Shown in pieces: positions 8,458-49,794 of a stretch of DNA of 64,000 bases. Origin of the DNA: a bacterium (lineage in GTDB: Bacteria > UBA8248 > JACPRG01 > G963555815); NCBI GenBank assembly GCA_965261595.1, contig CBDHDG010000003.1, positions 1 through 64,000 of the forward strand, written 5' to 3'. The translations under genes were made by a program, and so were the position numbers. Positions within the stretch are counted from its first letter, which is position 1; the number at the start of each line of letters is the position of its first letter. The notes under the pieces were generated by a model. The model did no database searches. It was not told the origin of the DNA and worked only from the letters and a program-made list of their open reading frames with translations.

Positions 8458-8458
8458 C

Positions 8459-11521: not shown

Positions 11522-11552
11522 GCGGGGCCTCTTCGGAGGCCCTTGCTTTTTT
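11522..11552 (+). terminator. Intrinsic terminator-like hairpin between the promoter and the NYN start
   Basis: GGGCCTC-TTCG-GAGGCCC stem-loop followed by TTGCTTTTTT. Confidence 0.7.
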
Positions 11553-11563
11553 GGCGGGAATCG

Positions 11564-12187
11564 ATGCGCACTTTCGTCTATGTCGACGGGTTCAATCTCT
11601 ATTACGGGGCGCTCAAGGAATCTTCCTGGAAATGGCTGGACCTGCTCGCCCTGTTCGAGAAGGTGCTGCAGCCCCATCACGATATTCTGGCGATCAAGTA
11701 CTTCACGGCAAGGGTGTCGGGCACGTCCGGCGATCCGTCCAAACCCCAGAGGCAGGACGTGTATCTCCGCGCCCTGCGGCATTATCGGCCCCGGGTGGAA
11801 ATCTACTTCGGCCACTTCCTCAGCCACAAGGTCTGGGCGCCGCTTGCGCAACCGCTTGGGAGCCAGCGCATGGCGGAGGTGATCAGGACCGAAGAGAAAG
11901 GCTCGGACGTCAATCTCGCCGTGCATCTGCTGAATGACGGGTGGATGAACGCCTACGATTGCGCTGTGGTCGTCTCCAACGACAGCGACATCGCCGAAGC
12001 GATGCGCCTGGTGAGACAGCATCATGCTAAGCGGATCGGCCTGATAACGCCGGGAACCGGCCGTCCATCCCGCCAGCTGATGGCGCATGCGGACTTTTCA
12101 AGGCATATCAGGGACAACGCCCTGCGGCGTTCGCAACTCCCGAATCCGATCCCCGGTGCCAATATACGGAAACCTTCGCACTGGTAG
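11564..12187 (+). CDS. NYN (LabA/PIN-like) domain RNase
   Basis: VYVDGFNLYYG, IKYFTA, EEKGSDVNLA, VVSNDSD acidic motifs all intact. Confidence 0.9.
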   Translation: MRTFVYVDGFNLYYGALKESSWKWLDLLALFEKVLQPHHDILAIKYFTARVSGTSGDPSKPQRQDVYLRALRHYRPRVEIYFGHFLSHKVWAPLAQPLGSQRMAEVIRTEEKGSDVNLAVHLLNDGWMNAYDCAVVVSNDSDIAEAMRLVRQHHAKRIGLITPGTGRPSRQLMAHADFSRHIRDNALRRSQLPNPIPGANIRKPSHW

Positions 12188-17785: not shown

Positions 17786-20700
17786 TCAATATGGAGGACT
17801 GGCGACGACTTTGGCTTCCTCTGCCACCATCCGCCAGGATTCACCGCACAGTATCCACTTGGCGGCAACGTGCACCGGATTTGCAATGGGCAGCACATGG
17901 TAGCAGCCTTCATCCGTCTTCTCTACGACGTACAGATACCAAGATTCCGTCGCTTCAAACGCCTTGCGTATCTGCGCACCGCTAAGCTCCACAACCTCGA
18001 CATCGTCCCACGGACGTCCTCTGCCCTTAACCTCGATTAGCCGGACTTCGTGGGTCTCCGGGTCGATGCTGCGGATATCCCAACCGGACTGACGCGGATC
18101 ACCAAGCTCCGGCTCGCGTCCAGCCTCTCTCTCATACTGCGCGGTGACCTCTCGGTATTCTTCATCTCCGAGGCTCTTGTCCGTGTCTCCGTTGATCGCG
18201 GTGGCTTCACCTGCATCGTCCTCTTCGGGACTTGGCACGATTTCCCCCTTGAGCGAACTCTTCAATTGGTGGGCCAGGGCGTTCTGTTTGGAAAGAGCTC
18301 TGTCTCTGGTGTACGAGCCACCCATCGAACCCGACTCCTCTCGCCCGGAGTTCTCGGACGTTGCAGCGTCGATGTCGTCTGCCGTCGCACTACCGGACGG
18401 ATCGGACTCAACTTGTTCGGAAGTCTTTAATGTCGGTGTCTGTCCTTTGGGCACATGCCTATCTACACCTGCTTCTGCGATCGGCCCGGTGGTTTCAGCG
18501 GTCTCGCCCGATCCGTCTCCCGAACTGACGTTTTCGCCACTATCCAAGCCAAGCCCGAACGGTGCCGGCAATACGAACCCCGGGACATGGGAACGCCCGA
18601 ATTTCTCGGCAGCGAGATTGAAATCGGAATTCTCGATTGCGGTGAGCATCCCGGTGAGATCCGCGGCAAGACTGGCGCGTTGTCCGAAGGAGAAGTGGCG
18701 CAGGAGCTCCTTGGCTGCGTCGGCACCAAACTGCACAGGACGACCCGCAACCGTCAGAGTGCCCTCGTGGAGCCGGGCGTTCACAGGCACGCGTTCAGCG
18801 GCGCAACTCCCAACACTGGCATCCAGAGCAAGCTCATAAACATGAATCAGCCGCAGTCGTGTTCCGATTCCGTTATCCGACCAATCGCCCTCCAAAGGCT
18901 CGCTTCCCCGCACCTCTCGAAGAAGCTCACAGACTAGTTTAAATCTGGAGGCCCAGGCATCGGAGACAGGCAACATCTCATCGCCGCTAATCCACTCCAT
19001 GGTTACAATTGAGGACAGTAGCGGCAAGCAGATCGCTTCCGCAGTGCGAAGCTGTCCGGGCCGAGAGCGGCCGAGGTGCCCGCCCGTGGCGGTTCGCAAC
19101 TGGGCTTGCCGTGGAAAAAACCGTCGATCTTCGATGTCGTCGAAGTAGACATCGTCAGCGTCAGCCAAGGCGATCCATTCTCGCTCCGCGACAACCATCG
19201 CCTGCGGTACTGACTCACGCCATCGCTCCAAGAGCGAAGTGTCCTCGGCAATATCTTCCAGACAGTAGGCATATGCCGTCGGGAGCACGTCGCGAACCTC
19301 GTTTGCCAGTCCCTCGGGCGACAACCGGGCGCGCCTCCAAACATGCAAAAGGTAATCCAGCGCTTGCCCACCTGTTGTTGTCACCGGAAACTCGCGTGGA
19401 AACTCAGCATGTACCAACTCCGTACGCAATGTCTCTTCGATGCGGTCAAGCGGAACAACCCAGTCGCCCAGAGAGCCACGGAGGCGTCCTCCAACTCGCT
19501 GAACGATTCGGTCGAGCTCGACACGTTGGTTATCGCTCATCGGCAACCTAAGGTTTTGCAGAGCTTGTTCGAAGAGATGCCGATCTTTGTCTGACGTTGC
19601 CTGCTCGCGGCACTCGGAAAGAAGCCCCGCTAGCTCTGTCGCATCGAGTTGGGAGCCTACCGTCGTGAGTCTGCGGAGCGATGTAGCTTCGGGAAGCGCC
19701 GTACCGAACTTTACTCCTTCTTGGTCCAATACAGACAGAAATTCGGATGACAGTTTCGCAAACGGCGCGTCCTCCCGCGCTGGATCAGACAACGGAAGTA
19801 CGTCTTGCGGACGTCTAAGCTCGTCGTCGTCGCAAGGCACCCACGCGAGTTTGGAGAGCTTTGCTACCCAGGCGCTCGGCTTGTTTCCTGTCGGCTCCGA
19901 GACGTTTCGATATTTGTAACGCGCCTTCCGCTTACCCTGGCCCTTGAGGACTCTGAAGCCGTCAGAGAGCCAAGCGGCGATGGGCCGTCGCAGTTCTTCG
20001 GGTACATCTGGATCGGGAAGTCTTGGGTCGATGTCGAAGTCCAGAAGCTGATAGCCGCTGTCATTCGATTCATCGATCCTGCCAACGTCGAGGCCAAGAA
20101 ACTCGGCGACGCACTGACGCGCCCATCGTGACGCATATTTCTCCAAGGGCCGAACTTCGACACCGCCCTTGGCACCGGCCTTCTCAAGGAAAGCACGCCA
20201 TTCATGGGCACCTCCACTTTTCAGATCTTCTTCCAAATAGTCCGCTGAGATTGCGGGGACCTCCGGGAACAGACGCCGGCGATCTTGACCATGGTCGACA
20301 TATGGATCTGCCAGGAGTGCATCTCCTACCGGAACACCCAACTGGTCCTCATTCGATTGCACAAGCACGTGGGTTAATAGGTCAGCGCGATTTCGATGCT
20401 TTGCCCAGTGCCCAAACGGAGCAAGCACCGACCAGTCTGGTTTCCTAGATGACATCAGAGCATTCAAGGTATGCTCGACGATTTCTCGGAGACTGATGCT
20501 GCGGGCATGGCTCTCGATCCAGTCCCAGGCTTGTGACAGAAGCGCGTACTCCGGCTCTTGCTGCCTCCGTTGGCGGAGCGCGGTAACCCATTCGGTTTCC
20601 AGGCGGTTCGTGTCCGGGATGAACGGCTGCATTAGCTGCTGCGTTTCTGGTCCGCCAGGCTCGTCGTCGGCAGCGAGCGCCTCGTTAAGAAACGCCGCCT

Positions 20701-21603
20701 CACTAATAGCAACCCATTCCCCGGTCACTGATCGAACGCACCGAGCATTGAGGCTCCGCCACGCCTCATCGGAGGCCAATTCGGCGACAGCGGCCCAGAT
20801 GCGGAAAAGCAGCCGTGGGCGTTTCCCTTGTTCCTCAGGGAGCGTTTTCCACCAATCCCCGAGACCGCCATCCCACACTCGCTCCAATTCGTGCAGAGAC
20901 ATCTCGGTAAGAAGACCAATTCTGCGCAGAAGCCCGATCGCATTGCGTCCAAGCACATCATTCATGAGGACGCGTCCTTTCAGGAGAACCGCTGGTCGCA
21001 ACTCCGGCTGGTTCCAAAAAGCCTTCGCTAGCGGCGCGGGCGGAACAAGGGTATCGCCCGGCTTCGCGTACGCCAGCTTGCCTGTCGTTTCTGACCACAC
21101 CGGAATCACCGCTGCATCCTCAATGCGGTCCCGCAACATCGACAGCCAGCGCTCTTCGGCGAGAAGCGATTCAAGGCCACCTGCTTCCGATGATGGCTGC
21201 CCGAGAACCTTGAAGGCCGCTTTCGCCGCGTCGGGTTGAGAGTGCTTATTGGCAGACCAGTCGAGGAAACGCGCCAAAATGTCCGCGATCTTGTCGACGA
21301 TATCGCGTTGCCAGGGATTGTCCTCAATCTCCCGTAGGCCGCTCCGTGAGATATTCAAAAGCCAATCGGCATTGATGTGGAGGCCAAAGGGCAATGTAAC
21401 TTCGGTGGGCAAGGTAGCGTAAACGTGTCCCCTAGCCGGTGGAGCAGGCATGCCGTGGTTGTCCAGGGGCAGTACCCCAAGCACCTGGCGATCGCGGGCC
21501 GCATCGGAGTACACCTGCTTGCGCTCTTCTTTAGAAGGCTGGATTCTTCGGTGTACAAGAAAACAGGCAATCGCTTCCCTTGAAGGTCGGAATTGAGCGG
21601 GGA
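17786..21603 (-). pseudogene. Large sacsin-like / DUF3883 (NOV_C) nuclease protein, N-terminus removed by IS
   Basis: VYATLPTEVTLPFGLHINADWLLNISR (sacsin-like); C-terminal GWDIRS...RLIEVKG...WYLYVVE; the first 9 codons of the listed ORF are IS sequence. Confidence 0.75.
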
Positions 21604-23007
21604 TCCCCCGCTCTAGGGTTTTGTTGGACACTCGATTGATCCATGATTCATGGAGAAAGGGGTGTCGCGATGAACGAACAAAAGCAAGAGGGGGCTTTGG
21701 CGGAGGGCGCCCGCAGGGCGAACGGAGCCAAGGCCCCAGGGCATCGCAGTGAGCGGGGTCGGTTCTCCTGCCAGCGCAAGCGGGAGGCGGTCCTGCGTCT
21801 TTTGCGGGGCGAGAGCCTGGAGACGCTCTGCCGCGAGTTGGGCACGACAGCGGCTCGGCTTTCCGCCTGGCGCGAGGCGTTCCTTCGCGGGGGCGAGGCG
21901 GCGCTCAAAGCCCGCCCGGCGGATGAGCGGGCCGAGGAGAACGCCCGGCTCAAGGCCAAGGTGGGCGAACTCACGATGGAGGGCGAGGTCCTGCGGGAGA
22001 AGATCGACCGCCTGGAGGCCGGCCGCCCTTTAGCCGGCAGGAGGTGGAGGCGATGAGTCAGGCCCGCTTCACCTCCACGGGCAGAGCCTACGGCCTGAAG
22101 CGGGTGTGCGCCCTTTGGGGCTTGGCGCGCTCCACGGTCTACGCGCAACGGCGGCGAGAGGCGGTCCCCGTTCATGAACGCCCCACGCCCAATAAGCGCG
22201 GCCCTGTGGGCCCGTGCACCGATGCGGAACTCCTCGGCCACATCCGGCAGGTCCTGGAGGACTCTCCCTTCCATGGCGAGGGCTACCGCAAGGTGTGGGC
22301 GAGGCTGCGCTTCGCGGGCATCCGCACCAGCAAGGAGCGGGTGCGTCGCCTGATGCGGGAGGCGGGGCTTCAGGCCCCCCACCGGGTGGGCAAACCCCGA
22401 GGTCCCAAGGCCCACAACGGGACCATCCGCACCGAGCGGCCCGACCGAATGTGGGGCACGGACATGACGACGACGGTGACCACCGAGGAGGGGGTGGCCT
22501 CGGTGTTCGTGGCGGTGGATCACTGCTCGGTGGACTGCGTGGGGATCCATGCGGCCAAGAGCGGCAACCGCTTCGAGGCCCTGGAGCCGATCCGGCAGGG
22601 GGTCGCCGAGCGCTTCGCCGGCTTGGAGGCGGACGTCGCCGAGGGGCTTAAAGTTCGTCACGACCACGGCCCCGCCTATCTGTCCGATGACTTTCAGCGG
22701 GAGATCACCTACCTGGGCATGACCAGTTCGCCCAGCTTCGTGCGGGCGCCCGAGGGAAATGGCTACTGTGAGTGGTTTATCCGCATCTTGAAGGAGAATC
22801 TCCTGTGGGTGCGCTCTTTCGCCACCGTAGAGGAACTGCGGTGGGCGCTGCTTGAGTTCAAGAACCTGTATAACCATCATTGGATTCTCGAGGGCTACGG
22901 CTACCGAACGCCGGCCCAGGCAAGGCAGGAAAAACTCGCTCAAGTTGCGGAGGCCGCATGAGGTCGAATACCCTCACCCGAGTGTCCAATAACCCAGGGG
23001 CGGTCCA
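21604..23007 (+). mobile_element. 1404-bp IS3-family element, copy 1 (orfA 21670-22056, orfB 22053-22961)
   Basis: Ends TCCCCCGCTCTAGGG...GGGGCGGTCCA; DDE motifs WGTDMT / RHDHG / GYCEWF; no TSD (flanks GGGA / CCCC). Confidence 0.95.
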
Positions 23008-28179: not shown

Positions 28180-29585
28180 TCCCCCGCTCTAGGGTTTTGT
28201 TGGACACTCGGGTGAGGGTATTCGACCTCATGCGGCCTCCGCAACTTGAGCGAGTTTTTCCTGCCTTGCCTGGGCCGGCGTTCGGTAGCCGTAGCCCTCG
28301 AGAATCCAATGATGGTTATACAGGTTCTTGAACTCAAGCAGCGCCCACCGCAGTTCCTCTACGGTGGCGAAAGAGCGCACCCACAGGAGATTCTCCTTCA
28401 AGATGCGGATGAACCACTCACAGTAGCCATTTCCCTCGGGCGCCCGCACGAAGCTGGGCGAACTGGTCATGCCCAGGTAGGCGATCTCCCGCTGAAAGTC
28501 ATCGGACAGATAGGCGGGGCCGTGGTCGTGACGAACTTTAAGCCCCTCGGCGACGTCCGCCTCCAAGCCGGCGAAGCGCTCGGCGACCCCCTGCCGGATC
28601 GGCTCCAGGGCCTCGAAGCGGTTGCCGCTCTTGGCCGCATGGATCCCCACGCAGTCCACCGAGCAGTGATCCACCGCCACGAACACCGAGGCCACCCCCT
28701 CCTCGGTGGTCACCGTCGTCGTCATGTCCGTGCCCCACATTCGGTCGGGCCGCTCGGTGCGGATGGTCCCGTTGTGGGCCTTGGGACCTCGGGGTTTGCC
28801 CACCCGGTGGGGGGCCTGAAGCCCCGCCTCCCGCATCAGGCGACGCACCCGCTCCTTGCTGGTGCGGATGCCCGCGAAGCGCAGCCTCGCCCACACCTTG
28901 CGGTAGCCCTCGCCATGGAAGGGAGAGTCCTCCAGGACCTGCCGGATGTGGCCGAGGAGTTCCGCATCGGTGCACGGGCCCACAGGGCCGCGCTTATTGG
29001 GCGTGGGGCGTTCATGAACGGGGACCGCCTCTCGCCGCCGTTGCGCGTAGACCGTGGAGCGCGCCAAGCCCCAAAGGGCGCACACCCGCTTCAGGCCGTA
29101 GGCTCTGCCCGTGGAGGTGAAGCGGGCCTGACTCATCGCCTCCACCTCCTGCCGGCTAAAGGGCGGCCGGCCTCCAGGCGGTCGATCTTCTCCCGCAGGA
29201 CCTCGCCCTCCATCGTGAGTTCGCCCACCTTGGCCTTGAGCCGGGCGTTCTCCTCGTCCCGCTCATCCGCCGGGCAGGCTTTGAGCGCCGCCTCGCCCCC
29301 GCGAAGGAACGCCTCGCGCCAGGCGGAAAGCCGAGCCGCTGTCGTGCCCAACTCGCGGCAGAGCGTCTCCAGGCTCTCGCCCCGCAAAAGACGCAGGACC
29401 GCCTCCCGCTTGCGCTGGCAGGAGAACCGACCCCGCTCACTGCGATGCCCTGGGGCCTTGGCTCCGTTCGCCCTGCGGGCGCCCTCCGCCAAAGCCCCCT
29501 CTTGCTTTTGTTCGTTCATCGCGACACCCCTTTCTCCATGAATCATGGATCAATCGAGTGTCCAACAAAACCCTAGAGCGGGGGA
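28180..29585 (-). mobile_element. IS3-family element, copy 2 (1406 bp; left-type tip at both ends)
   Basis: Near-identical orfA/orfB; both termini read TCCCCCGCTCTAGGGTTTTGTTGGACACTCG inward. Confidence 0.95.
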
Positions 29586-30640
29586 CCAGTGTTTGGCAAC
29601 GGTTGCTCTTTGAAGGTCTCCCTATGCAATTCCTCTGCATCACGCCGAGTCTCGTTCTTTTGGTCATGCGCCGCGAACAGCGCCTCGATTGCGGTATCAG
29701 ACAGCGCCTCGTCAGTAGTCTTGACTCTCGCTACTAATACTTCCGTGCGCTCTGCGTGGAGCTCGATTGCGCAAGCGGTCTTTTCGGGATTGTCCGACTG
29801 TAGATCGCGAATTCTCTTCCGCGCGTCCTCGCTGCACGCCTTCTCAGCTTCAGCCAAGGTAGCGAGCTCCTTGACTGACTCCGGATCAGTGAGGGAGGTC
29901 AGATCTGTGATCAACTCGTGGACGGCCGTTCCCTCAGGTACATCGGGGAACTGGAGTATCTGTGACTCAAGCGCACTTCGTTCCTTTTCCAAGAGTTTCC
30001 TAACAGCTTCACAGCCGTCAGAGAGCTTGTCGAAGAGGTCAAGACCCATGGGACGAAACGCGACATCAGTTTGTTTTGAGACATACACGCTCGCACAATG
30101 ATGATCGAATACACTAACTCTCGAAAGGAATACGTTAGGAGGCTGATCATCATCCCATAGAAAATCGCATGACTTTTCATCTGCCGTGAACTTAATGGTC
30201 GCAGATGGGCGTCCGGGAGTAGTTCCAGACACGACGTTCCCTAGAATCTCTTCGGCACCGCGCGCTCGACACGCACGTTTCAAGATGCGTGTGTAACCGG
30301 ACTTGCCAGCAGCATTTGCACCATAGACGACTGTCAACCGAGGCCCGAATTCGATCTTCTGATTTTGGGCAAGTGCGTTGACTCCAGCATGGTGTGTGAG
30401 CGATTTCAGCAATATGGGCTTCTTCCCAGCATGTGGCTGAGGGAGGTGGCTTGCATCGAGTGGCACAGGTTTCGCCTTATCACCCAGTCCGTATTGAGAT
30501 CTGCAGAGATTCGACAGCTCCTTGATGTCCGTCTCGTCGAGTTTACCTCTCGTGACCAATCGTCGTAATGCATCACGTTGCCAGGGCGGACGGTCTAATG
30601 ACCACTGAAGAATCTCGTTAAGGACATTTACTCTCACCAC
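29586..30640 (-). pseudogene. AAA/ABC-type ATPase with coiled coil, C-terminus removed by IS
   Basis: WQRDALRRL N-terminus, Walker A YGANAAGKSG, VSVFD; GTG start with GGAGA RBS. Confidence 0.8.
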
Positions 30641-30657
30641 GTATTTCTCCAAACTTT

Positions 30658-32061
30658 TCCCCCGCTCTAGGGTTTTGTTGGACACTCGATTGATCCATGA
30701 TTCATGGAGAAAGGGGTGTCGCGATGAACGAACAAAAGCAAGAGGGGGCTTTGGCGGAGGGCGCCCGTAGGGCGAACGGAGCCAAGGCCCCAGGGCATCG
30801 CAGTGAGCGGGGTCGGTTCTCCTGCCAGCGCAAGCGGGAGGCGGTCCTGCGTCTTTTGCGGGGCGAGAGCCTGGAGACGCTCTGCCGCGAGTTGGGCACG
30901 ACAGCGGCTCGGCTTTCCGCCTGGCGCGAGGCGTTCCTTCGCGGGGGCGAGGCGGCGCTCAAAGCCCGCCCGGCGGATGAGCGGGCCGAGGAGAACGCCC
31001 GGCTCAAGGCCAAGGTGGGCGAACTCACGATGGAGGGCGAGGTCCTGCGGGAGAAGATCGACCGCCTGGAGGCCGGCCGCCCTTTAGCCGGCAGGAGGTG
31101 GAGGCGATGAGTCAGGCCCGCTTCACCTCCACGGGCAGAGCCTACGGCCTGAAGCGGGTGTGCGCCCTTTGGGGCTTGGCGCGCTCCACGGTCTACGCGC
31201 AACGGCGGCGAGAGGCGGTCCCCGTTCATGAACGCCCCACGCCCCATAAGCGCGGCCCTGTGGGCCCGTGCACCGATGCGGAACTCCTCGGCCACATCCG
31301 GCAGGTCCTGGAGGACTCTCCCTTCCATGGCGAGGGCTACCGTAAGGTGTGGGCGAGGCTGCGCTTCGCGGGCATCCGCACCAGCAAGGAGCGGGTGCGT
31401 CGCCTGATGCGGGAGGCGGGGCTTCAGGCCCCCCACCGGGTGGGCAAACCCCGAGGTCCCAAGGCCCACAACGGGACCATCCGCACCGAGCGGCCCGACC
31501 GAATGTGGGGCACGGACATGACGACGACGGTGACCACCGAGGAGGGGATGGCCTCGGTGTTCGTGGCGGTGGATCACTGCTCGGTGGACTGCGTGGGGAT
31601 CCATGCGGCCAAGAGCGGCAACCGCTTCGAGGCCCTGGAGCCGATCCGGCAGGGGGTCGCCGAGCGCTTCGCCGGCTTGGAGGCGGACGTCGCCGAGGGG
31701 CTTAAAGTTCGTCACGACCACGGCCCCGCCTATCTGTCCGATGACTTTCAGCGGGAGATCGCCTACCTGGGCATGACCAGTTCGCCCAGCTTCGTGCGGG
31801 CGCCCGAGGGAAATGGCTACTGTGAGTGGTTCATCCGCATCTTGAAGGAGAATCTCCTGTGGGTGCGCTCTTTCGCCACCGTAGAGGAACTGCGGTGGGC
31901 GCTGCTTGAGTTCAAGAACCTGTACAACCATCATTGGATTCTCGAGGGCTACGGCTACCGAACGCCGGCCCAGGCAAGGCAGGAAAAACTCGCTCAAGTT
32001 GCGGAGGCCGCATGAGGTCGAATACCCTCACCCGAGTGTCCAATAACCCAGGGGCGGTCCA
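30658..32061 (+). mobile_element. 1404-bp IS3-family element, copy 3
   Basis: Complete, with 4-bp TSD CTTT (30654-30657 / 32062-32065). Confidence 0.96.
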
Positions 32062-40974: not shown

Positions 40975-43416
40975 TGTGTTGACCCCCTTTAACCGGAGCC
41001 ATTTGCTGAGTTAGTGTATTTCGGCATTTGGGTCATTGAGGAGGGGGATCAGATGCCCAGGAAACGTTTTACAGTCGAGCAGATCATCAATCATCTTCGG
41101 GAGGCGGAAGTGCTGCTGGCACAGGGCCAGCGGGTTGGCGAGCTCTGTCGTCAGATAGGCATCACGGAGCAGACGTTTTACCGGTGGCGCCGCGAGTATG
41201 GCGGCCTGAAGCTGGACCAGGCGAAGCGTCTGAAGGTGCTAGAGCAGGAGAATGCCCGGCTCAAGCGTGCGGTTGCCGATCTGACGCTGGACAAGTTGAT
41301 CCTGAAGGAAGCTGTTGAGGGAAACTGGTAAGCCCCGAGCGTCGCCGACGCTGTGTGTCCTACGTGATGGAACGCCACCCTGTTTCCGAACGTCGGGCCT
41401 GCATGGTCCTGGGCCAGTCGCGCACGAGCCAGCGCTACAGTCCGATCATCGTGGAGGAGGCCGGTCCGTTGGCGGCGGTCCCCCGCTCTAGGGTTTTGTT
41501 GGACACTCGATTGATCCATGATTCATGGAGAAAGGGGTGTCGCGATGAACGAACAAAAGCAAGAGGGGGCTTTGGCGGAGGGCGCCCGCAGGGCGAACGG
41601 AGCCAAGGCCCCAGGGCATCGCAGTGAGCGGGGTCGGTTCTCCTGCCAGCGCAAGCGGGAGGCGGTCCTGCGTCTTTTGCGGGGCGAGAGCCTGGAGACG
41701 CTCTGCCGCGAGTTGGGCACGACAGCGGCTCGGCTTTCCGCCTGGCGCGAGGCGTTCCTTCGCGGGGGCGAGGCGGCGCTCAAAGCCCGCCCGGCGGATG
41801 AGCGGGACGAGGAGAACGCCCGGCTCAAGGCCAAGGTGGGCGAACTCACGATGGAGGGCGAGGTCCTGCGGGAGAAGATCGACCGCCTGGAGGCCGGCCG
41901 CCCTTTAGCCGGCAGGAGGTGGAGGCGATGAGTCAGGCCCGCTTCACCTCCACGGGCAGAGCCTACGGCCTGAAGCGGGTGTGCGCCCTTTGGGGCTTGG
42001 CGCGCTCCACGGTCTACGCGCAACGGCGGCGAGAGGCGGTCCCCGTTCATGAACGCCCCACGCCCAATAAGCGCGGCCCTGTGGGCCCGTGCACCGATGC
42101 GGAACTCCTCGGCCACATCCGGCAGGTCCTGGAGGACTCTCCCTTCCATGGCGAGGGCTACCGCAAGGTGTGGGCGAGGCTGCGCTTCGCGGGCATCCGC
42201 ACCAGCAAGGAGCGGGTGCGTCGCCTGATGCGGGAGGCGGGGCTTCAGGCCCCCCACCGGGTGGGCAAACCCCGAGGTCCCAAGGCCCACAACGGGACCA
42301 TCCGCACCGAGCGGCCCGACCGAATGTGGGGCACGGACATGACGACGACGGTGACCACCGAGGAGGGGGTGGCCTCGGTGTTCGTGGCGGTGGATCACTG
42401 CTCGGTGGACTGCGTGGGGATCCATGCGGCCAAGAGCGGCAACCGCTTCGAGGCCCTGGAGCCGATCCGGCAGGGGGTCGCCGAGCGCTTCGCCGGCTTG
42501 GAGGCGGATGTCGCCGAGGGGCTTAAAGTTCGTCACGACCACGGCCCCGCCTATCTGTCCGATGACTTTCAGCGGGAGATCGCCTACCTGGGCATGACCA
42601 GTTCGCCCAGCTTCGTGCGGGCGCCCGAGGGAAATGGCTACTGTGAGTGGTTCATCCGCATCTTGAAGGAGAATCTCCTGTGGGTGCGCTCTTTCGCCAC
42701 CGTAGAGGAACTGCGGTGGGCGCTGCTTGAGTTCAAGAACCTGTACAACCATCATTGGATTCTCGAGGGCTACGGCTACCGAACGCCGGCCCAGGCAAGG
42801 CAGGAAAAACTCGCTCAAGTTGCGGAGGCCGCATGAGGTCGAATACCCTCACCCGAGTGTCCAATAACCCAGGGGCGGTCCAGCGGCGATCATCCGCTTG
42901 GCTGGTCAGTATGGCCGTTATGGCTATCGCCGGGTGACGGCGTTGCTTCGAGCAGAGGGTTGGCGCGTGAACCACAAGCGGGTGGAACGGATCTGGCGGC
43001 GGGAGGGGCTGAAGGTGCCTAAGAAGCAACCCAGACGGGGACGTCTGTGGCTCAATGATGGTTCCTGTATCCGTCTGAGGCCCTGCTGGCCCCATCATGT
43101 CTGGGCCTATGACTTCGTCCAGGGACGCACGCATGACGGCAAGGCCTTCCGGATGCTGACAGTGCTCGACGAATACACGCGTGAGTGCCTTGCCATCGAG
43201 ATCGGCCGCAAGCTGTGCAGCGACGATGTCCTGCACTGCCTGAGTGCCCTGTTCGCTCGCCATGGAGCGCCGGAGCACATTCGGTCGGATAACGGGCCGG
43301 AGTTTACCGCTCAGGTTGTTCGGGACTGGCTACCGCGAGTCGGGGTGAGAACCCTGTTCATCGAGCCCCGCTCGCCCTGGGAGAACGGCTACAACGAGAG
43401 CTTTAATGGCAAGCTA
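40975..43416 (+). mobile_element. IS3-family (IS407 group) element interrupted by IS copy 4 and 3'-truncated
   Basis: IRL TGTGTTGACCCC; orfA 41053-41331 (MPRKRFTVEQII); GGGAAACTGGTAAG frameshift window; orfB resumes after 42882 (YGYRR, WAYDF, SDNGPEF). Confidence 0.9.
41479..42882 (+). mobile_element. 1404-bp IS3-family element, copy 4
   Basis: Complete, with 4-bp TSD GCGG (41475-41478 / 42883-42886); removing it restores the host orfB frame. Confidence 0.96.
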
Positions 43417-43505
43417 CAAACTCATTAGTGTGTGTTGCTCACGATTGAAGAGCAGTAATTCAGCGATCGTCGTTTCACGATTTGCGATTCACCAAGTGTT
43501 GGTTA

Positions 43506-43709
43506 CTACCAGTCGTTCCAAAGCTTGATCGTGGCCGCAAGAAAGGTATCGCAGTTAGCTGGCGCCCAACAAGTGTGGGCATTGTCATACAACAAATAAT
43601 ACTGCTTATTCGCACAAATCAACTTGGTCTTATCTGCATCATTTTGAATCCAATTTAGGGCGTTGACGAAGCAGTCCTGGTAACTATTAGTAAACTTGCA
43701 GCTCGGTAC
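43506..43709 (-). pseudogene. C-terminal 67 aa of a CdnE-like CD-NTase (not in the ORF track)
   Basis: Manual translation VPSCKFTNSYQDCFVNALNWIQNDADKTKLICANKQYYLLYDNAHTCWAPANCDTFLAATIKLWNDW*, resembling clade-E CD-NTase C-termini as I recall them. Confidence 0.75.
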
Positions 43710-45113
43710 TCCCCCGCTCTAGGGTTTTGTTGGACACTCGATTGATCCATGATTCATGGAGAAAGGGGTGTCGCGATGAACGAACAAAAGCAAGAGGGGG
43801 CTTTGGCGGAGGGCGCCCGCAGGGCGAACGGAGCCAAGGCCCCAGGGCATCGCAGTGAGCGGGGTCGGTTCTCCTGCCAGCGCAAGCGGGAGGCGGTCCT
43901 GCGTCTTTTGCGGGGCGAGAGCCTGGAGACGCTCTGCCGCGAGTTGGGCACGACAGCGGTTCGGCTTTCCGCCTGGCGCGAGGCGTTCCTTCGCGGGGGC
44001 GAGGCGGCGCTCAAAGCCCGCCCGGCGGATGAGCGGGACGAGGAGAACGCCCGGCTCAAGGCCAAGGTGGGCGAACTCACGATGGAGGGCGAGGTCCTGC
44101 GGGAGAAGATCGACCGCCTGGAGGCCGGCCGCCCTTTAGCCGGCAGGAGGTGGAGGCGATGAGTCAGGCCCGCTTCACCTCCACGGGCAGAGCCTACGGC
44201 CTGAAGCGGGTGTGCGCCCTTTGGGGCTTGGCGCTCTCCACGGTCTACGCGCAACGGCGGCGAGAGGCGGTCCCCGTTCATGAACGCCCCACGCCCAATA
44301 AGCGCGGCCCTGTGGGCCCGTGCACCGATGCGGAACTCCTCGGCCACATCCGGCAGGTCCTGGAGGACTCTCCCTTCCATGGCGAGGGCTACCGCAAGGT
44401 GTGGGCGAGGCTGCGCTTCGCGGGCATCCGCACCAGCAAGGAGCGGGTGCGTCGCCTGATGCGGGAGGCGGGGCTTCAGGCCCCCCACCGGGTGGGCAAA
44501 CCCCGAGGTCCCAAGGCCCACAACGGGACCATCCGCACCGAGCGGCCCGACCGAATGTGGGGCACGGACATGACGACGACGGTGACCACCGAGGAGGGGG
44601 TGGCCTCGGTGTTCGTGGCGGTGGATCACTGCTCGGTGGACTGCGTGGGGATCCATGCGGCCAAGAGCGGCAACCGCTTCGAGGCCCTGGAGCCGATCCG
44701 GCAGGGGGTCGCCGAGCGCTTCGCCGGCTTGGAGGCGGACGTCGCCGAGGGGCTTAAAGTTCGTCACGACCACGGCCCCGCCTATCTGTCCGATGACTTT
44801 CAGCGGGAGATCGCCTACCTGGGCATGACCAGTTCGCCCAGCTTCGTGCGGGCGCCCGAGGGAAATGGCTACTGTGAGTGGTTTATCCGCATCTTGAAGG
44901 AGAATCTCCTGTGGGTGCGCTCTTTCGCCACCGTAGAGGAACTGCGGTGGGCGCTGCTTGAGTTCAAGAACCTGTACAACCATCATTGGATTCTCGAGGG
45001 CTACGGCTACCGAACGCCGGCCCAGGCAAGGCAGGAAAAACTCGCTCAAGTTGCGGAGGCCGCATGAGGTCGAATACCCTCACCCGAGTGTCCAATAACC
45101 CAGGGGCGGTCCA
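43710..45113 (+). mobile_element. 1404-bp IS3-family element, copy 5
   Basis: Complete; flanks GTAC / TGTG give no TSD, consistent with an adjacent deletion or recombination. Confidence 0.95.
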
Positions 45114-45484
45114 TGTGCTTCGACTAGGACGAGTAAGTGAAGAAGCCCATCGCTAAAAATCCAGCGTTCAGCTTTATTTGCCTTGGGGTACCACATGCAA
45201 AGTTGCCCGTTGCTATAACGGTGTGGGTAGTCTTCAGGGCCATCGACCGTAACTTCTGGGGACTTACGTGAATCGCTAAATAGCTTGATTGTCACGGCCC
45301 TAGTTACGTCAAAATCCTTCGAGAAAATGTTGACGTTATATTGTATCCACCGCTTGTGTCCAAGTTTGCACTTTTTTGTGCGGAGGGAGGGATATTCATC
45401 AAATACACGCCGTTCGAAAATATAGCGCTTGCTATAAGTTTCATACCATGGGCTTCTTGACTGTTTACCCCTCCTTCTTGCCAC
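45114..45484 (-). pseudogene. Prokaryotic E2 (UBC-fold)-like CBASS accessory protein, C-terminus cut by IS
   Basis: SPEVTVDGPEDYPHRYSNGQLCMWYP...RW...GLLHLL (PH..Y.nG.LC..YP..W pattern); overlaps the cyclase stop. Confidence 0.72.
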
Positions 45485-46472
45485 CGTACGCCTCTGTTTG
45501 CTTAACACGAGGATATGATGAATCCACAGCAGGCCTCAGGCCAGCGGTAATGGCCAAACCCGCGTTACCCTCCCTTAACAGGTTGGCTTTTTTGAGCTTT
45601 GACTCTTCCTTGCTGATACGATCAATCCAGAACTGATGCTTAAAGATGCTGTTCCAAGCCTTCAAAGCTTTGAGTCGTGTGCAATCACTGTCGAACAGTA
45701 CTTCAAGGTCTTCAAGCGCTTCAGATAGCTTCTCTCGTAAGTGTTTGGTTCGTGCATCATCTGCTCCTTTCGTTAACATCTCGTTCCGAACAGGATGGCA
45801 GACTTCTAAATTCAACTTTAGACGATCACGAATAGTCTTTATGGTCTTGTAAAGCGAAACATCATCCCGATCATCAGATACGTAACACTCAACAACAAGG
45901 GCTGATATAACAAACCCACTTGCCATCTTAGCCTTCCAGCTTGCCCGGCTGTTTTTATATGCTTTTACATGTCGTGTGATTCGTCGAAGTTGACGGCCAT
46001 TAACTGTGTCTGGACTTTTTTCAATTACTGCTTTATTGTACCATTCCGTCACTTCACTCGGACTGCTCCCTTCCCAATCACTGCTGGCTAATTCGAGGGT
46101 TTTATCATCCAACTGCCGGTATACGGGCACATCGACATGATAGCCCTTTTGATAAATTACACGCACACAATTTATTAGCACTTCTGGAGGTGTTGCGAAT
46201 GAGCCATCGTCAAGCGCGGAGCATACCATTTTCCGGGCATCTAATGCTATTTTATCAGTTCCCTGGCTGCCCACTAAGTCTTCTTTGAGAAAAATAACTC
46301 CATCGTCAATGTCGTAATCATTGTTTTCGTCCTGAACCATTGTGTGCATAGCATATGAACCCTGCGCCTGATATGAATCTGGAGAAGGACCCTCATTTGC
46401 ATCAAGACCTTTTTTTAACCGCGTTCGGTTAGCGTCGCGGCGCTCACGCATTTCCGACTGCTGCGTCGAGTT
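45465..46472 (-). CDS. DncV-like CD-NTase (CBASS cyclase), extreme N-terminus removed by IS
   Basis: QGSYAMHTMVQ..DYDIDDG, CVRVIY.KGYHVDVPVY, SSPSEVTEW, QLRRITRHVK; ends ...EAYGGKKEG. Confidence 0.9.
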   Translation of the reverse strand, partial: NSTQQSEMRERRDANRTRLKKGLDANEGPSPDSYQAQGSYAMHTMVQDENNDYDIDDGVIFLKEDLVGSQGTDKIALDARKMVCSALDDGSFATPPEVLINCVRVIYQKGYHVDVPVYRQLDDKTLELASSDWEGSSPSEVTEWYNKAVIEKSPDTVNGRQLRRITRHVKAYKNSRASWKAKMASGFVISALVVECYVSDDRDDVSLYKTIKTIRDRLKLNLEVCHPVRNEMLTKGADDARTKHLREKLSEALEDLEVLFDSDCTRLKALKAWNSIFKHQFWIDRISKEESKLKKANLLREGNAGLAITAGLRPAVDSSYPRVKQTEAYGGKKEG

Positions 46473-47883
46473 TGGAGTTGCCCCGTTTTTGTGGACACCT
46501 TCAGACTGTGGGGAGGAGGTGTTCAGATGCCGAAAACTCATTCACCCTACGCGCCGGAATACCGGCGCCAGATGGGTGAGCTGGTTCGCTCGGGCCGTAC
46601 GCCCGGGGAGCTGGCCCGGGAGTTCGAGTGTTCCGCTTCGGCGATTCGCAACTGGGTGCGCCAGGCCGACCGCGACGAGGGCCGTCGTGAGGACGGTCTG
46701 ACAAGCTCAGAGCTCGAGGAGCTACGGCGGCTTCGTCGGGACAATCGTCAGCTTCGCGAAGAACGCGAGATACTGGCAAGAGCTACGGCTTGGTTCGCTC
46801 GGGAGACCGGCTCGGTCCGGGCGAAGTCTTCGAGCTCGTGAAGGCGAATCAGGCCTGCCATCGGGTGGCCACGATGTGCCGTCGGCTGGGTGTCTCCCCC
46901 AGCGGATACTACGCGTGGCGAAGCCGTGGGCGTTCGAATCGTGCGAAGCGCGAGGAGGCGTTGCGTGGCACGATCCGGGCCATCCACGAGGTATCTGGTG
47001 GCACCTACGGGGCGCCTCGGGTCCATGCCGAGATGATGGCCGGCGGCTGCCGGGTGAGCCGCAATCGGGTGGCTCGTCTGATGCGCGAGGCAGGGTTGGC
47101 CGGGGTGAGCCGACGCCGAGGCATGCGCACTACGCGCGTGGACCAGAGCCATTGTGTGGTCCCGGACCGGGTCGAACGCCAGTTCCAGGCCGATGCGCCG
47201 GATCGGCTTTGGGTGGCCGACGTGACCTACGTGCCGACCTGGACGGGGTTCGTGTACCTGGCCATCGTGCTCGACGTGTTCAGCCGCCGGGTGGTGGGAT
47301 GGTCCATGACCCACCATCTTCGCACCGAACTGGTGCTCGGGGCGCTGAACATGGCGTTGGGACAGCGCCGCCCCGACGGGGTCGTGCATCACTCCGACAG
47401 GGGATCGCAGTACACTTCGCTCGCCTTCGGCAAGCGGTGCCGGGAGATGGGGGTGGTTCCCTCGACCGGGTCGGCCGGGGATTGCTTCGACAACGCCATG
47501 GCCGAGAGCTTCTTTGCCACGCTGGAGTGCGAGCTCATCGACCGGCGCTCGTTCCGTACCCAGGCCGAAGCGCACATGGCGATCTTCCAATTCATCGAAG
47601 GCTGGTACAACCCACGCCGTCGTCATTCGGCCCTGGGTTACCTCAGCCCCAACGACTTCGAACGCGCCGTGGCGAAGGAAACGCCACGTGCAGTGCGCAA
47701 CGCTCATCGTCCGGCTCGAGCCGTCCCCGGTGCTTCCCGGAGCAGCGAGCCAAAGGTCAAGACATACCCCCCGGGGGCACCCTATCTATCGGATAGGGAG
47801 AAGACTGTACGTCCACCGGCTGTCGCCCACCTCAGGGCTGGGGACGACAGCCCTAAACTGTCCACTGAAACGGGTCAAATCCA
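46473..47883 (+). mobile_element. IS3-family element (orfA 46527-46841; orfB within ORF 46790-47926)
   Basis: IRL TGGAGTTGCCCCGTTTTTGTGGACA, IRR TGTCCACTGAAACGGGTCAAATCCA; WVADVT / HSDRGSQY / AMAESF; no TSD (flanks AGTT / CATC). Confidence 0.93.
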
Positions 47884-49794
47884 CATCTGGAGGAGCAAAA
47901 GGCCCTGCTGCAGTTCCTGGAGTTAGATCAACCCGACCAGAACGCTATCCTCGAAAAGATCAATGCCAAGCGCTCGGTTCTGTCGCTGCCACCACTGGAG
48001 GAACTCAAGGCGACAACTTCCTTCAGAATGGGGGTGCCCGATCCCGCCACGGTGCAGGCACCGGCCCTAAAAAAAGCTGATGCGCAAGCAGATTTGGCAG
48101 TGCTTGCGAAATTCGATACAGAGGGCGAGCCGCAGGATGCGGCATCCAAGCGTCAAATCGCGCTGTCAGACCTCCAGGGACTGATTGATGATGTGGGCTT
48201 ACTGCGCACTCTGAAGCAGCAATCCCTGGTCACGGCTGGGATTGAGCTTGTTGACGGCGACGCTTGTCCACTTTGCGATCTGGAATGGGATCGCGAAACC
48301 TTGTTGGAACATTTGAGCGCCAAGCTGAATGGCGCCAAGCACGCTACCACGCTTCTCAAGGAGCTGAATGAGAACGTCAACTATGTCATTGCTGAACGCG
48401 AATCGTTGAGCAGTGTGCTGGACCGGCTGGTTGCCGTGTCCGCAAAGCTGACCCCGGTAGTTCCCGCTGATTGCATAAGCGCCCACGCGAAGCGAATCGC
48501 GACTGGGACAAATTCACTCCGGGCCTTTGTCGCTCATTTCAGCGGCCTCAGTGACGCCAAGGAAGCCCTGGAACAGGAATGGTGGATTCCGCCCGCGGAC
48601 GTTCAGGAGCAGATCAATGCCTGCTCCAAGGGAATTGCCGCTCTACCGGAGGTGTCAGAGGAAGACATAGCCAGGGATTTTCTGACCCGAGCGGAGGACC
48701 AGTATCATAGAGCCGTCGCAACACACGCTGCTTTCAAAACTGCGGATTCGCGTTCGTCGGTCGCTGCCAAGGTCCTTGAGTCATACAAGGAAAACAGCGA
48801 TACAATACTGAAATCACTGTACGACGATGTGGCAGAGGATTTCTCAGGGTACTACCGCAGTCTCAACCCGGAGGATGAACGCAAGTTCGTAGGCAACCTG
48901 ATCCCGTCCGCTGCCAAGCTCGGATTCAACGTCGATTTCTACGGACGCGGTAAGTTCCCGCCGGGTGCCTATCACAGTGAAGGTCATCAGGACGGTATGG
49001 GCGTGTGTCTCTACCTCGCCCTTATTAAACGAACCCAGGGCGAGAAATTTAGGTTTTCCGTTCTAGACGACGTGTTGATGTCGATCGACGCCGATCACCG
49101 GCGTCAAGTGTGCAAGCTGCTCAAGCGGGAGTTCCCCGACACACAGTTCATCGTGACTACCCATGATCGCGTGTGGCTGAAATTTATGCATACCGAAGGG
49201 CTAATTCAAAACAGTCAGACTTTTGGAGCTTGGTCCGTAGAGGCCGGTCCGCGAGTCTGGAAGCACCAGGAGATATGGGCTGAGATAGAGGAAGAACTAG
49301 AAAAAAATGACATTGAAACGGCGGCGGCTAAACTACGGCACTATCTTGAATATGTTTTCACTTTGCAAGCTGATTCGTTGCAAGCTCAGGTTCGGTACAA
49401 AGGGGACGGCCAGTATTCTTTAAACGACCTTATGCCCTCCGTGATCAACCGTTGGCACAAAAAAGTTACCAATGCCGTCAAGGCCGCTAAGTCATGGGGT
49501 CAAGCTGAAAAGGAAGCAGAGCTATTAGAGTTGCTTGTACGCATTGATGACGCAAAGACTCGGATGAATGCAGAGCAATGGGCTGTGAACCCAGCTGTTC
49601 ACTACAATCAGTGGGCAAACTTCCAAATCGCTGAATTCCGCGAGGTTCTTCGTGCTTTTACCGATCTGCTTGCGACCATGCAGTGCGATGTTTGCAACGC
49701 CTTGGTAGAGTTGCAGCCGCGAGACAAGGCGGCCAAAACGATCCGCTGCAATTGCGGAGTTATCGTGATCAATCTCAATATGAAGGAGGCGTGA
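47884..49794 (+). pseudogene. SMC/Rad50-like ABC ATPase lacking its N-terminal Walker A region
   Basis: CPLC Zn-hook, signature HSEGHQD, Walker B VLDDVLMSID, TTHD; begins at the IS end. Confidence 0.82.

Follow-up and report, generated by a model that had tools for sequence, protein, structure and literature searches.

A probable relic of two neighbouring CBASS operons in a low-GC island broken by insertion sequences

Described CBASS systems and the window locus

Type II CBASS of the Vibrio cholerae type has the gene order capV-dncV-cap2-cap3. E2-CBASS is a described class with an E2-cyclase ligation mechanism, exemplified by SmCdnG-SmE2 of Serratia marcescens, and 73.65% of its cyclases are reported to belong to clade G, with the cyclases described as long (PMC12948482); E2-CBASS, or 'type II short', is also mentioned in PMC11153139. 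For the CdnE-type cyclases, RmCdnE (6E0K) and EmCdnE (6E0M) are solved relatives named in PMC10442399, and the names of PDB structures used below follow PMC12804361 and PMC10442399.

The stretch of DNA analyzed here (hereafter, the window) comprises 64,000 nt and contains two low-GC foreign scraps (45% GC; 44-46% in each) lying between three insertion sequences (IS) in a genome of 63% GC. Scrap 1 (45114-46472, minus strand) carries a CD-NTase with intact GS/DxD/D motifs, hereafter cyclase 1, and a stand-alone E2, each of them cut, and scrap 2 (43506-43709) carries the 67 C-terminal codons of a 297-aa CdnE-like CD-NTase, hereafter cyclase 2. Truncation therefore affects all three genes and not only the cyclase-2 fragment.

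Scrap 1 resembles the SmCdnG-SmE2 system of PMC12948482 in that its CD-NTase gene overlaps a downstream gene for a stand-alone E2 of about 150 aa that has a conserved motif at its catalytic Cys. A further likeness is the conserved GG that precedes a short C-terminal tail in cyclase 1, reminiscent of the G397-G398 ligation site of SmCdnG. Unlike the cyclases of that class, which are reported to be long and mostly of clade G, cyclase 1 is a 358-aa protein whose nearest solved structure is BfCdnB. The arrangement also differs from SmCdnG-SmE2 in that the closest relative of scrap 1, genome G047, has a patatin effector placed upstream, and in that the window copy is truncated on either side and lacks an effector. 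The likeness to the Vibrio cholerae-type system is seen in more distant relatives: loci L004-L007 have an upstream patatin, the two complete loci among them have an ORF in the Cap2 position, and in a further locus, L080, the corresponding ORF is confirmed as an E1-E2 fusion. The window lineage, in contrast, has an E2 without an E1 domain, has no JAB gene, and has a cyclase that is not close to DncV. Scrap 2 invites comparison with type I CBASS (CapV-like patatin plus CdnE-type cyclase), since 297-aa relatives of cyclase 2 lie directly behind a phospholipase effector (PDLC00755), but the window keeps only the last 67 codons of cyclase 2, with no catalytic residue, start codon or effector.

Gene remnants and the insertion sequences that cut them

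The ORF of cyclase 1 (45465-46541, minus strand, 358 aa) matches the Pfam DncV-like nucleotidyltransferase family PF21654 (3.9e-18) and the PADLOC cyclase model PDLC00783 (1.1e-123). Residues G61-S62, D77xD79 and D137 are invariant among 11 relatives (alignment A3) and are all present in the window protein, which thus has the core of a CD-NTase, a Pol-beta-type nucleotidyltransferase with GS and a DxD...D triad. The first 23 codons of this apparent 358-aa ORF are IS-C sequence, and homology to the G047 cyclase begins at codon 23 of the latter; the native first 22 codons are hence missing, the native gene remnant (codons 23-358 and stop) spans 45465-46472 on the minus strand, as delimited by alignment A3 and nucleotide identity with G047, and the promoter was lost to IS-C together with those codons. 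At its other end the protein terminates in AYGGKKEG. Of 9 close relatives in alignment A3, 8 have the YGG and P0063 has YGS, and one protein terminates exactly at YGG. Cyclase 1 thus keeps a C-terminal glycine to which an E2 could be ligated, and the conserved YGG of this family fits the E2-CBASS mechanism (PMC12948482).

A search of PDB with cyclase 1 returned BfCdnB (7LJO, 1e-18) as the nearest solved structure, far ahead of DncV (4U0N, 7e-4). The sequence-only reading had named this protein a DncV-like CD-NTase; the label holds as the Pfam domain name, and the GS/DxD motifs are intact as it stated, but membership in clade A (DncV) is not supported by these values. We provisionally regard cyclase 1 as CdnB-like, a clade B label that derives from the nearest solved structures.

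The E2 ORF (45080-45508, minus strand) overlaps cyclase 1 and matches the PADLOC E2 model PDLC00867 (7.7e-22, profile positions 3-122 of 145). The catalytic-Cys motif PHRY..G.LCMWYP is invariant in relatives and kept in the window (alignment A2), so that a stand-alone E2 with a catalytic Cys and without an E1 domain stands beside the cyclase. The native remnant, residues 1-124 of about 150, occupies 45114-45484 on the minus strand (PDLC00867; alignment A2) and shares 78% identity with the E2 of G047 across those residues. This E2 is not intact: the last 26 of 150 native codons are gone, including the conserved C-terminal LFRE.WWRETGEWLGPE segment, and have been replaced by 10 IS-A-derived codons running to 45080. 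Comparison with solved structures gave only chance-level matches (E >= 0.086). The possibility that the gene is the N-terminus of a cut Cap2 was rejected, as its relatives are stand-alone proteins of 144-155 aa and the models it matches are all of E2 and none of E1-E2. The earlier description of an overlapping E2-like gene of the E2-only, 'type II short' kind was thus borne out.

The cyclase-2 remnant (43506-43709, minus strand, GC 0.448) consists of a 67-codon frame, VPSCKF...LWNDW*, at 43509-43709 and its stop codon at 43506-43508. The only in-frame starts are three TTG codons, yielding at most 37 codons, which is below the 40-aa listing limit and explains why the frame is not found in the ORF track. 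It matches the PADLOC cyclase PDLC00788 over profile positions 232-297 of 297 (9e-20), far beyond chance, and is 90% identical to a 297-aa full-length relative, P0001. Residues 231-297 alone survive, without a usable start codon or catalytic residues. P0001 in turn matches RmCdnE (6E0K, 3.8e-50), EmCdnE (4.4e-37), EfCdnE (9.6e-33) and ClCdnE (1.1e-24), as well as a structure named 'cyclic dipyrimidine nucleotide synthase' (7X4F, 9.2e-35). The frame is thus a CD-NTase C-terminus, and the matches of P0001 agree with the sequence-only remark that it resembles that of clade-E (CdnE-like) cyclases; we use the CdnE-like label provisionally, as it comes from the nearest solved structures of full-length P0001 and the part in the window has no active site. 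Behind the stop codon, 43418-43505 (minus strand) is untranslated low-GC DNA (GC 0.438 over 43429-43508), to which a metagenome contig described below aligns from position 43430.

The two scraps are separated by IS-A (43710-45113, plus strand), an IS3-family element of 1404 bp with orfA at 43749-44162 and orfB at 44150-45067 (Pfam HTH_Tnp_1 and rve). The genome holds 175 full-length IS-A copies at about 99% identity, of which 115 have a perfect 4-bp target duplication; 60 lack one, and 41 lack any flank match, indicating that rearrangements are common. The copy in question is flanked by GTAC and TGTG, confirming the earlier observation that an IS without a target-site duplication lies between the genes, and this, together with the two different broken genes on its flanks, indicates that DNA was lost or rearranged at IS-A. 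On the far side of scrap 1 lies IS-C (46473-47883, plus strand), another member of the IS3 family, about 1411 bp long, identified by BLAST against the genome (10 full-length copies, 34 HSPs) and by Pfam (rve and HTH_21). With the end coordinates used, which are probably a few bases off, 8 of 10 IS-C copies have no target duplication. IS-C also truncates an LmuB-like gene on its other side, whose frame is open up to the IS end. The third element, IS-B, is a truncated IS3-family element that begins at about 43417, is single-copy in the genome and has an orfB frame that breaks off at ...ESFNGKL. The locus is a well-bounded example of a defence island in which one gene after another has been eroded by an IS burst, and a caution against inferring operon architecture from IS-joined fragments.

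The missing gene parts were not found anywhere in the 6.17-Mb assembly. A genome-wide tblastn with both patatin types revealed no effector remnant, the single distant patatin-like stretch being on contig C6 (23% identity, E 1e-4), and when 39 of the window's 51 larger ORFs were scanned with PADLOC, no CBASS effector was detected at E<=1e-10; the other 12 are IS frames and the CBASS and LmuB ORFs, which were PADLOC-scanned separately. The sequence-only statement that no effector survives in the window accordingly stands, and the locus has no cyclic-nucleotide-activated effector of the kind present in the operon of a functional CBASS.

Relatives of the two systems

The closest relative of scrap 1, G047, shares 84% nucleotide identity with the window over exactly 46472-45114 and nowhere else. 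Its operon, written capP-capH | patatin-cyclase-E2, comprises capP (1.8e-26), capH (2e-20), a PDLC00758 patatin, a 358-aa cyclase and a 150-aa E2 (PDLC00867, 5.3e-34). Downstream of the E2 the GC content rises and unrelated genes follow, with no second cyclase. The order patatin-cyclase-E2, ending at E2, places the effector of this system upstream of the cyclase, where IS-C now sits in the window, and not, as the sequence-only reading had it, between the E2 and a second cyclase. Among more distant cyclase-1 relatives (43-63% identity), the patatin of L004-L007 is likewise upstream, and the ORF in the Cap2 position of the two complete loci is 605-617 aa long.

Relatives of cyclase 1 number 1410. 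For cyclase 2, a metagenome scan identified 321 relatives, of which 80 loci were fetched and 74 were assessable. In 72 of these 74, the gene immediately upstream, on the same strand, encodes a patatin (PDLC00755, 3.3e-166). Many of the relatives are followed by a 581-aa ORF that was considered as a Cap2 and rejected, as it contains Pfam DACNG and DACNH sensor domains and has no PADLOC match. In L088, L090 and L091, about 5 kb of DNA encodes, on a single strand, a patatin and cyclase-2 relative, a DACNG/DACNH protein, and a patatin and PDLC00821 cyclase. These loci show two CBASS modules side by side, as we propose for the window, but are intact, and their second cyclase belongs to a different family. 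Relatives of P0001 or of the G047 cyclase were not found in viral contigs. In a tblastn search of plasmids the best match to P0001 was 65.7% identical and matches to the E2 reached at most 40%, and within the window's phylum (51 genomes) P0001 retrieved a single cyclase, 40% identical, in genome G011.

The two cyclase families are not obligately paired. The cyclase-2 family (PDLC00788) is found in none of the five genomes with a cyclase-1 relative, G047 included; conversely, 5 of 401 genomes of one class carry PDLC00788 and none of those five carries PDLC00783, so that 0 of 10 genomes with one family hold the other. A conserved order of DncV-like cyclase, E2, effector and CdnE-like cyclase, which the sequence-only reading led us to look for, was not seen in the neighbourhoods of homologues: both cyclases are not conserved within one operon of close homologues, and among the 74 assessable loci the two are combined in L080 only. 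This locus consists of a patatin, a PDLC00783 cyclase (5.3e-137), an E1-E2 protein (PDLC00836, 1.3e-203) and, 81 nt further on, a 297-aa cyclase-2 relative, with neither a second patatin nor a JAB gene called behind Cap2.

The ancestral arrangement

Metagenome data bear on whether the two scraps were once neighbours. P0013, a shortened (257 aa) protein 97% identical to cyclase 1, and P0001 are each found on an ENA contig of 10,463 nt, and given the equal size and the source we infer that this is one contig; none of the E2 relatives found came from a 10,463-nt contig. In metagenome run X1 both scraps are present, with 95-98% identity and comparable depths of 4.2-6.9. Run X8 also has the two scraps, at similar low depth. 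Coverage gaps in parts of the stretch in runs X1, X2 and X8 were taken as uninformative. In X1 the scraps are joined to neither IS-A nor IS-C at the junctions; instead the contigs continue for 1790 nt beyond 45114 and for 447 nt beyond 46473 in sequence that is not IS. The X1 contigs at this locus include one of 577 nt. One contig (A; 1879 nt, depth 5.67) aligns to 43430-43706 on the plus strand with its positions 1590-1866 and ends about 10 nt right of 43709; another (B; 1879 nt, depth 5.64) aligns to 45114-45202 on the minus strand with its positions 1-89 and extends from 45114 a further 1790 nt to the left. From these two contigs the missing segment would measure about 1.8 kb. If the genes ran head to tail, the expected gap would comprise 82 nt for the end of the E2, about 986 nt from patatin 2 to the start of cyclase 2, and 690 nt for cyclase-2 codons 1-230, that is, about 1758 nt plus a short spacer, which fits the size implied by X1. 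Judged from the 10,463-nt contig, run X1 and the shared GC content, the two cyclases were most likely neighbours before the event at IS-A.

We therefore consider it probable that the locus is the relic of two separate, neighbouring CBASS operons in one horizontally acquired low-GC island, probably arranged head to tail. System 1 would be an E2-CBASS ('type II short') of patatin phospholipase, CdnB-like CD-NTase and stand-alone E2, probably under capH/capP control, and system 2 a type I pair of patatin and CdnE-like CD-NTase. By analogy with published work on related systems, the E2 of system 1 would bind covalently to the glycine-rich cyclase C-terminus and thereby control the cyclase, and after infection the cyclic nucleotide would switch on the phospholipase, destroying the membrane so that the cell dies before the phage matures. 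Patatin 1 and the first 22 codons of cyclase 1 would have been lost to IS-C or to a deletion next to it. At IS-A, an adjacent deletion or recombination between two copies of the element would have taken about 1.8 kb, comprising the last 26 codons of the E2, patatin 2 and cyclase 2 up to codon 230, and an event at IS-B would have removed whatever lay behind cyclase 2. Here we infer that a patatin 2 existed, that the two operons ran head to tail and how much was deleted. As nothing is left that could signal to an effector, the locus no longer defends.

The sequence-only reading had offered either a dual-signal CBASS or two stacked modules, with the middle removed by IS-adjacent deletion. The stacked modules are favoured by the evidence, and the dual-signal alternative is opposed by the G047 operon that ends at E2, the cyclase-2 family's own patatin in 72 of 74 loci and the absence of co-occurrence in 10 genomes. 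The loss or rearrangement at IS-A likewise stands, but the deletion itself is a deduction for which inversion is a rival. According to this rival, the E2 faced the 3' end of cyclase 2 across about 1.4 kb, and an inversion between opposed IS-A copies, with later loss of the reciprocal product, generated the present order. An IS copy without target duplication would also be expected from inversion, and the X1 contigs A and B, both of 1879 nt and of near-equal depth, would make the genes convergent if they were one record. They are listed separately and differ in depth, however; the reciprocal junction is absent from the assembly, more events are needed (an inversion and two later losses), and the head-to-tail arrangement predicts the observed gap to within tens of bases. 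We hence regard convergent neighbours as unlikely.

A true dual-cyclase operon of patatin, CdnB-like cyclase, E2 and CdnE-like cyclase, from which the IS-A event removed only about 0.85 kb, has exactly the layout of L080 with Cap2 replacing E2, and the same two families also adjoin in the window's lineage. In such an operon a single phospholipase would receive its signal from two cyclases, of which the E2 controls just one. We think this quite improbable, because the layout is seen in just 1 of the 74 assessable loci, the closest relative ends at E2, neither family accompanies the other in the 10 genomes, and L080 itself could be a deletion product. Furthermore, X1 contig B, on the minus strand, would have to hold the whole of cyclase 2 in the 1790 nt past 45114, and yet 43430-43706 is covered by a single plus-strand contig. 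L080 nonetheless counts against two separate operons in that its cyclase of the cyclase-2 family lies directly behind Cap2 without a patatin of its own, and it may be more than chance that the same two families are adjacent in two diverged lineages, that of the window and that of L080, whose two instances are 48% and about 65% identical. The window's ancestor might have resembled L080, as a four-gene CBASS of patatin, CdnB-like cyclase, E2 or Cap2, and CdnE-like cyclase with two sensors and one effector, in which a second, unconjugated cyclase takes the place of the Cap3 isopeptidase and which arose twice or was kept over long divergence, although we give this proposal little chance. A literature search on CBASS with two CD-NTases found the phrase only in another sense. 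The relic itself has very little significance; the comparative lead is that the same two CD-NTase families are adjacent here and in L080. If the L080 layout is functional, two nucleotide synthases would share one phospholipase, which bears on how CBASS widens sensing.

Chance juxtaposition, in which recombination among the roughly 175 IS-A copies that saturate this genome joined scraps from distant places, is very hard to credit, given that both scraps share an unusual GC content for the genome, that for each scrap the closest homologue comes from a 10,463-nt contig, and that X1 and X8 each hold the two at similar low depth. Apart from this locus, CBASS in this genome is limited to an unrelated cyclase and 2TM pair on contig C7.

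Two CBASS remnants bordered by insertion sequences

The locus consists of the non-functional remains of two CBASS, adjacent in a foreign island; both kinds are already known, and there is little new in the locus itself. Within a genome (G000) of 6.17 Mb and 63% GC, of which the window covers C3:1–64000, the relic comprises two short stretches of 44–46% GC with insertion sequences of 65–70% GC between them, and this atypical composition is common to both scraps. IS-B, a single-copy IS3-family element (41014 to ~43417) that has lost its right end and is interrupted by a copy of IS-A (41479–42882, with an intact 4-bp duplication, GCGG), is followed by low-GC DNA carrying the cyclase-2 fragment (43418–43709), a further IS-A copy (43710–45113), low-GC DNA carrying cyclase 1 and E2 (45114–46472) and IS-C (46473–47883). 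Three IS-associated events would have cut down both operons in this IS-saturated genome.

Cyclase 1, encoded by a 358-aa ORF on the minus strand (45465–46541), matches PF21654 (3.9e-18) and PADLOC model PDLC00783 (1.1e-123), and retains the GS motif, the DxD and the third Asp, all of which are invariant across 11 aligned relatives. The overlapping ORF (45080–45508, minus strand) encodes a CBASS E2 (PDLC00867, 7.7e-22) with the invariant PHRY..G.LCMWYP motif. IS sequence makes up 23 codons at the start of the cyclase ORF and 10 at the end of the E2 ORF, revealing that both genes are themselves cut, which could not be recognised in the sequence-only reading. Among solved structures the best match is BfCdnB (7LJO, 1e-18), with DncV scoring only 7e-4; "DncV-like" therefore names a domain rather than a clade. 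System 1 belongs to the E2-CBASS class described in PMC12948482, in which E2 is covalently joined to the cyclase C-terminus, a mechanism that the conserved ...YGG(KKxx) tail of the cyclase-1 family fits.

The 67-codon frame at 43509–43709 (minus strand) matches the last 66 positions of cyclase model PDLC00788 (9e-20) and shares 90% identity with the C-terminal end of P0001, a full-length relative of 297 aa; its sole in-frame starts are three TTG codons, leaving at most 37 codons. The full-length relatives are 297 aa long and their PDB matches are all CdnE-type (RmCdnE 3.8e-50, EmCdnE 4.4e-37 and three more CdnE entries; structure names from PMC10442399). The IS-A copy between the scraps is flanked by GTAC and TGTG, without a target duplication, as against perfect 4-bp duplications at 115 of the 175 full-length copies in the genome. 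The protein, motif, fragment and IS-A checks thus bear out the initial description of an intact-motif cyclase with overlapping E2, a C-terminal cyclase fragment and an intervening IS lacking a duplication. In a separate cyclase-2 relative (P0007, 307 aa, 65-kb contig), the C-terminal tail, RFLRPRSSFGTTGS.QHLVNRK, agrees with a translation of the same window DNA in the other frame, and the gene is therefore a frameshifted, near-identical one.

Effector position in the two systems

A search of the phylum, which is small (61 genomes), identified an 84%-identical cyclase in a single genome, G047, from another family. Over precisely the span bounded by the two IS ends (G047 locus 8356–9717, window 46472–45114), and nowhere else, the G047 island shows 84% DNA identity to the window. 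There, capP (1.8e-26) and capH (2e-20) lie on one strand, and a patatin phospholipase effector (PDLC00758), a 358-aa cyclase and a 150-aa E2 (PDLC00867, 5.3e-34) on the other; past E2, GC climbs from 44% to 53–56%, followed by unrelated genes. By this comparison the window lacks 22 cyclase codons, 26 E2 codons and the whole patatin, of which no remnant was found anywhere in the G000 assembly. The system 1 effector stood upstream of cyclase 1, and not between E2 and cyclase 2 as had been proposed. The G047 patatin (L011:5934–8309) is divided between two overlapping ORFs (profile positions 3–145 and 136–321 of 331) and its capP matches positions 75–241 only; this copy may be decaying as well, or contain sequencing errors.

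Cyclase-2 neighbourhoods were analysed in 80 metagenome loci, the best 80 of 321 relatives. Among the 74 of these whose upstream sequence exceeds 300 nt, 72 carry a CBASS phospholipase (PDLC00755, 3.3e-166) immediately before the cyclase in the same orientation; only L069 and L080 do not. Cyclases of this type are normally part of their own two-gene patatin–cyclase system. In 16 of the best 80 loci (L059:10952–12697 and 15 others) a conserved ORF of ~580 aa, its sequence distinct in each, lies ~60 nt behind the cyclase. The one copy scanned matched no PADLOC model and carries the "probable sensor" domains DACNG (5.5e-64) and DACNH (1.6e-29), ruling out Cap2; the ORF may be an accessory or third component of a patatin plus CdnE-like subtype.

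Adjacency of the two systems and the loss at IS-A

No second cyclase was found in G047, nor any PDLC00788 gene in four other genomes holding cyclase-1 relatives, contrary to the expectation of two cyclases in one operon among close homologues; of the 5 of 401 genomes of one class that have PDLC00788, none has PDLC00783. The closest cyclase-1 homologue, P0013 (97% identity over residues 65–317), and P0001 are each encoded on a single ENA contig, 10,463 nt long in both cases. Both scraps are also present in X1, a coral-reef metagenome run, at 95–98% identity and similar depth, and X1 contigs continue into non-IS sequence past 45114 (1790 nt) and 46473 (447 nt); an allele without the deletion therefore exists. 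The contig, X1 and GC evidence indicates that the two cyclases were at least neighbours. The proposal of two stacked modules is supported, but that of a dual-signal system with its effector in the middle is not. Complete stacked CBASS pairs occur elsewhere (L088, L090, L091).

One X1 contig starts in E2 and spans the 1790 nt beyond 45114, and another covers 43430–43706 and stops ~10 nt beyond 43709; on the assumption that they abut, ~1.8 kb is missing. Under a head-to-tail arrangement, 82 nt would come from the end of E2, ~986 nt from the interval between patatin and cyclase starts in the nearest cyclase-2 loci and 690 nt from 230 cyclase codons, or 1758 nt plus a short spacer, a fit that is arithmetic on contig extents and not direct observation. 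Both contigs measure 1879 nt, and were they one record, E2 and cyclase 2 would converge and today's order would have arisen by inversion; they are, however, listed as separate entries with different depths.

A true dual-cyclase operon has a small chance, kept open by L080 (3017–8104), whose layout is the one originally envisaged. Its genes are, in order, a patatin, a cyclase matching PDLC00783 (48% identity to cyclase 1), an E1-E2 Cap2 (PDLC00836) and, after a gap of 81 nt, a CdnE-like relative of cyclase 2 (297 aa), with neither a second patatin nor a called Cap3/JAB gene behind Cap2. The locus may be a genuine two-cyclase operon or the outcome of a deletion. Upstream, the opposite strand encodes a fusion regulator of capH/capP-like type.

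IS-A copies and other defence genes

The 1404-bp IS3-family IS-A has undergone a burst across G000 (175 full-length copies, ~99% identity). The absence of any flank match at 41 copies and of a perfect 4-bp duplication at 60 suggests that deletions or rearrangements mediated by the IS have been numerous. Five copies lie in the window (21604–23007, 28197–29585, 30658–32061, 41479–42882 and 43710–45113), which as a whole looks like an IS-eroded defence island. Next to IS-C, an LmuB-like SMC ATPase gene (47884–49794, plus strand; LmuB 8.2e-11, profile 291–593 of 611) lacks its N-terminal head and is open right up to the IS end, and so is a 5'-truncated Lamassu-type gene; with cyclase 1 also 5'-truncated, IS-C sits between two 5'-less genes. 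A PDC-S06 protein (29573–30685, minus strand) is truncated at position 350 of the 858-position profile, its end lying beside an IS-A copy; HEC-09 (11543–12187, plus strand; 2.4e-45) and a 1281-aa TmtA-like protein (17786–21631, minus strand) are also encoded. The only other CBASS in G000 (C7:931341–932890, minus strand) pairs a 300-aa PDLC00788-family cyclase (3.7e-65) with a 2TM effector (PDLC00702, 3.8e-81); this seemingly complete system lies between hsdS and hsdR of a type I restriction system.
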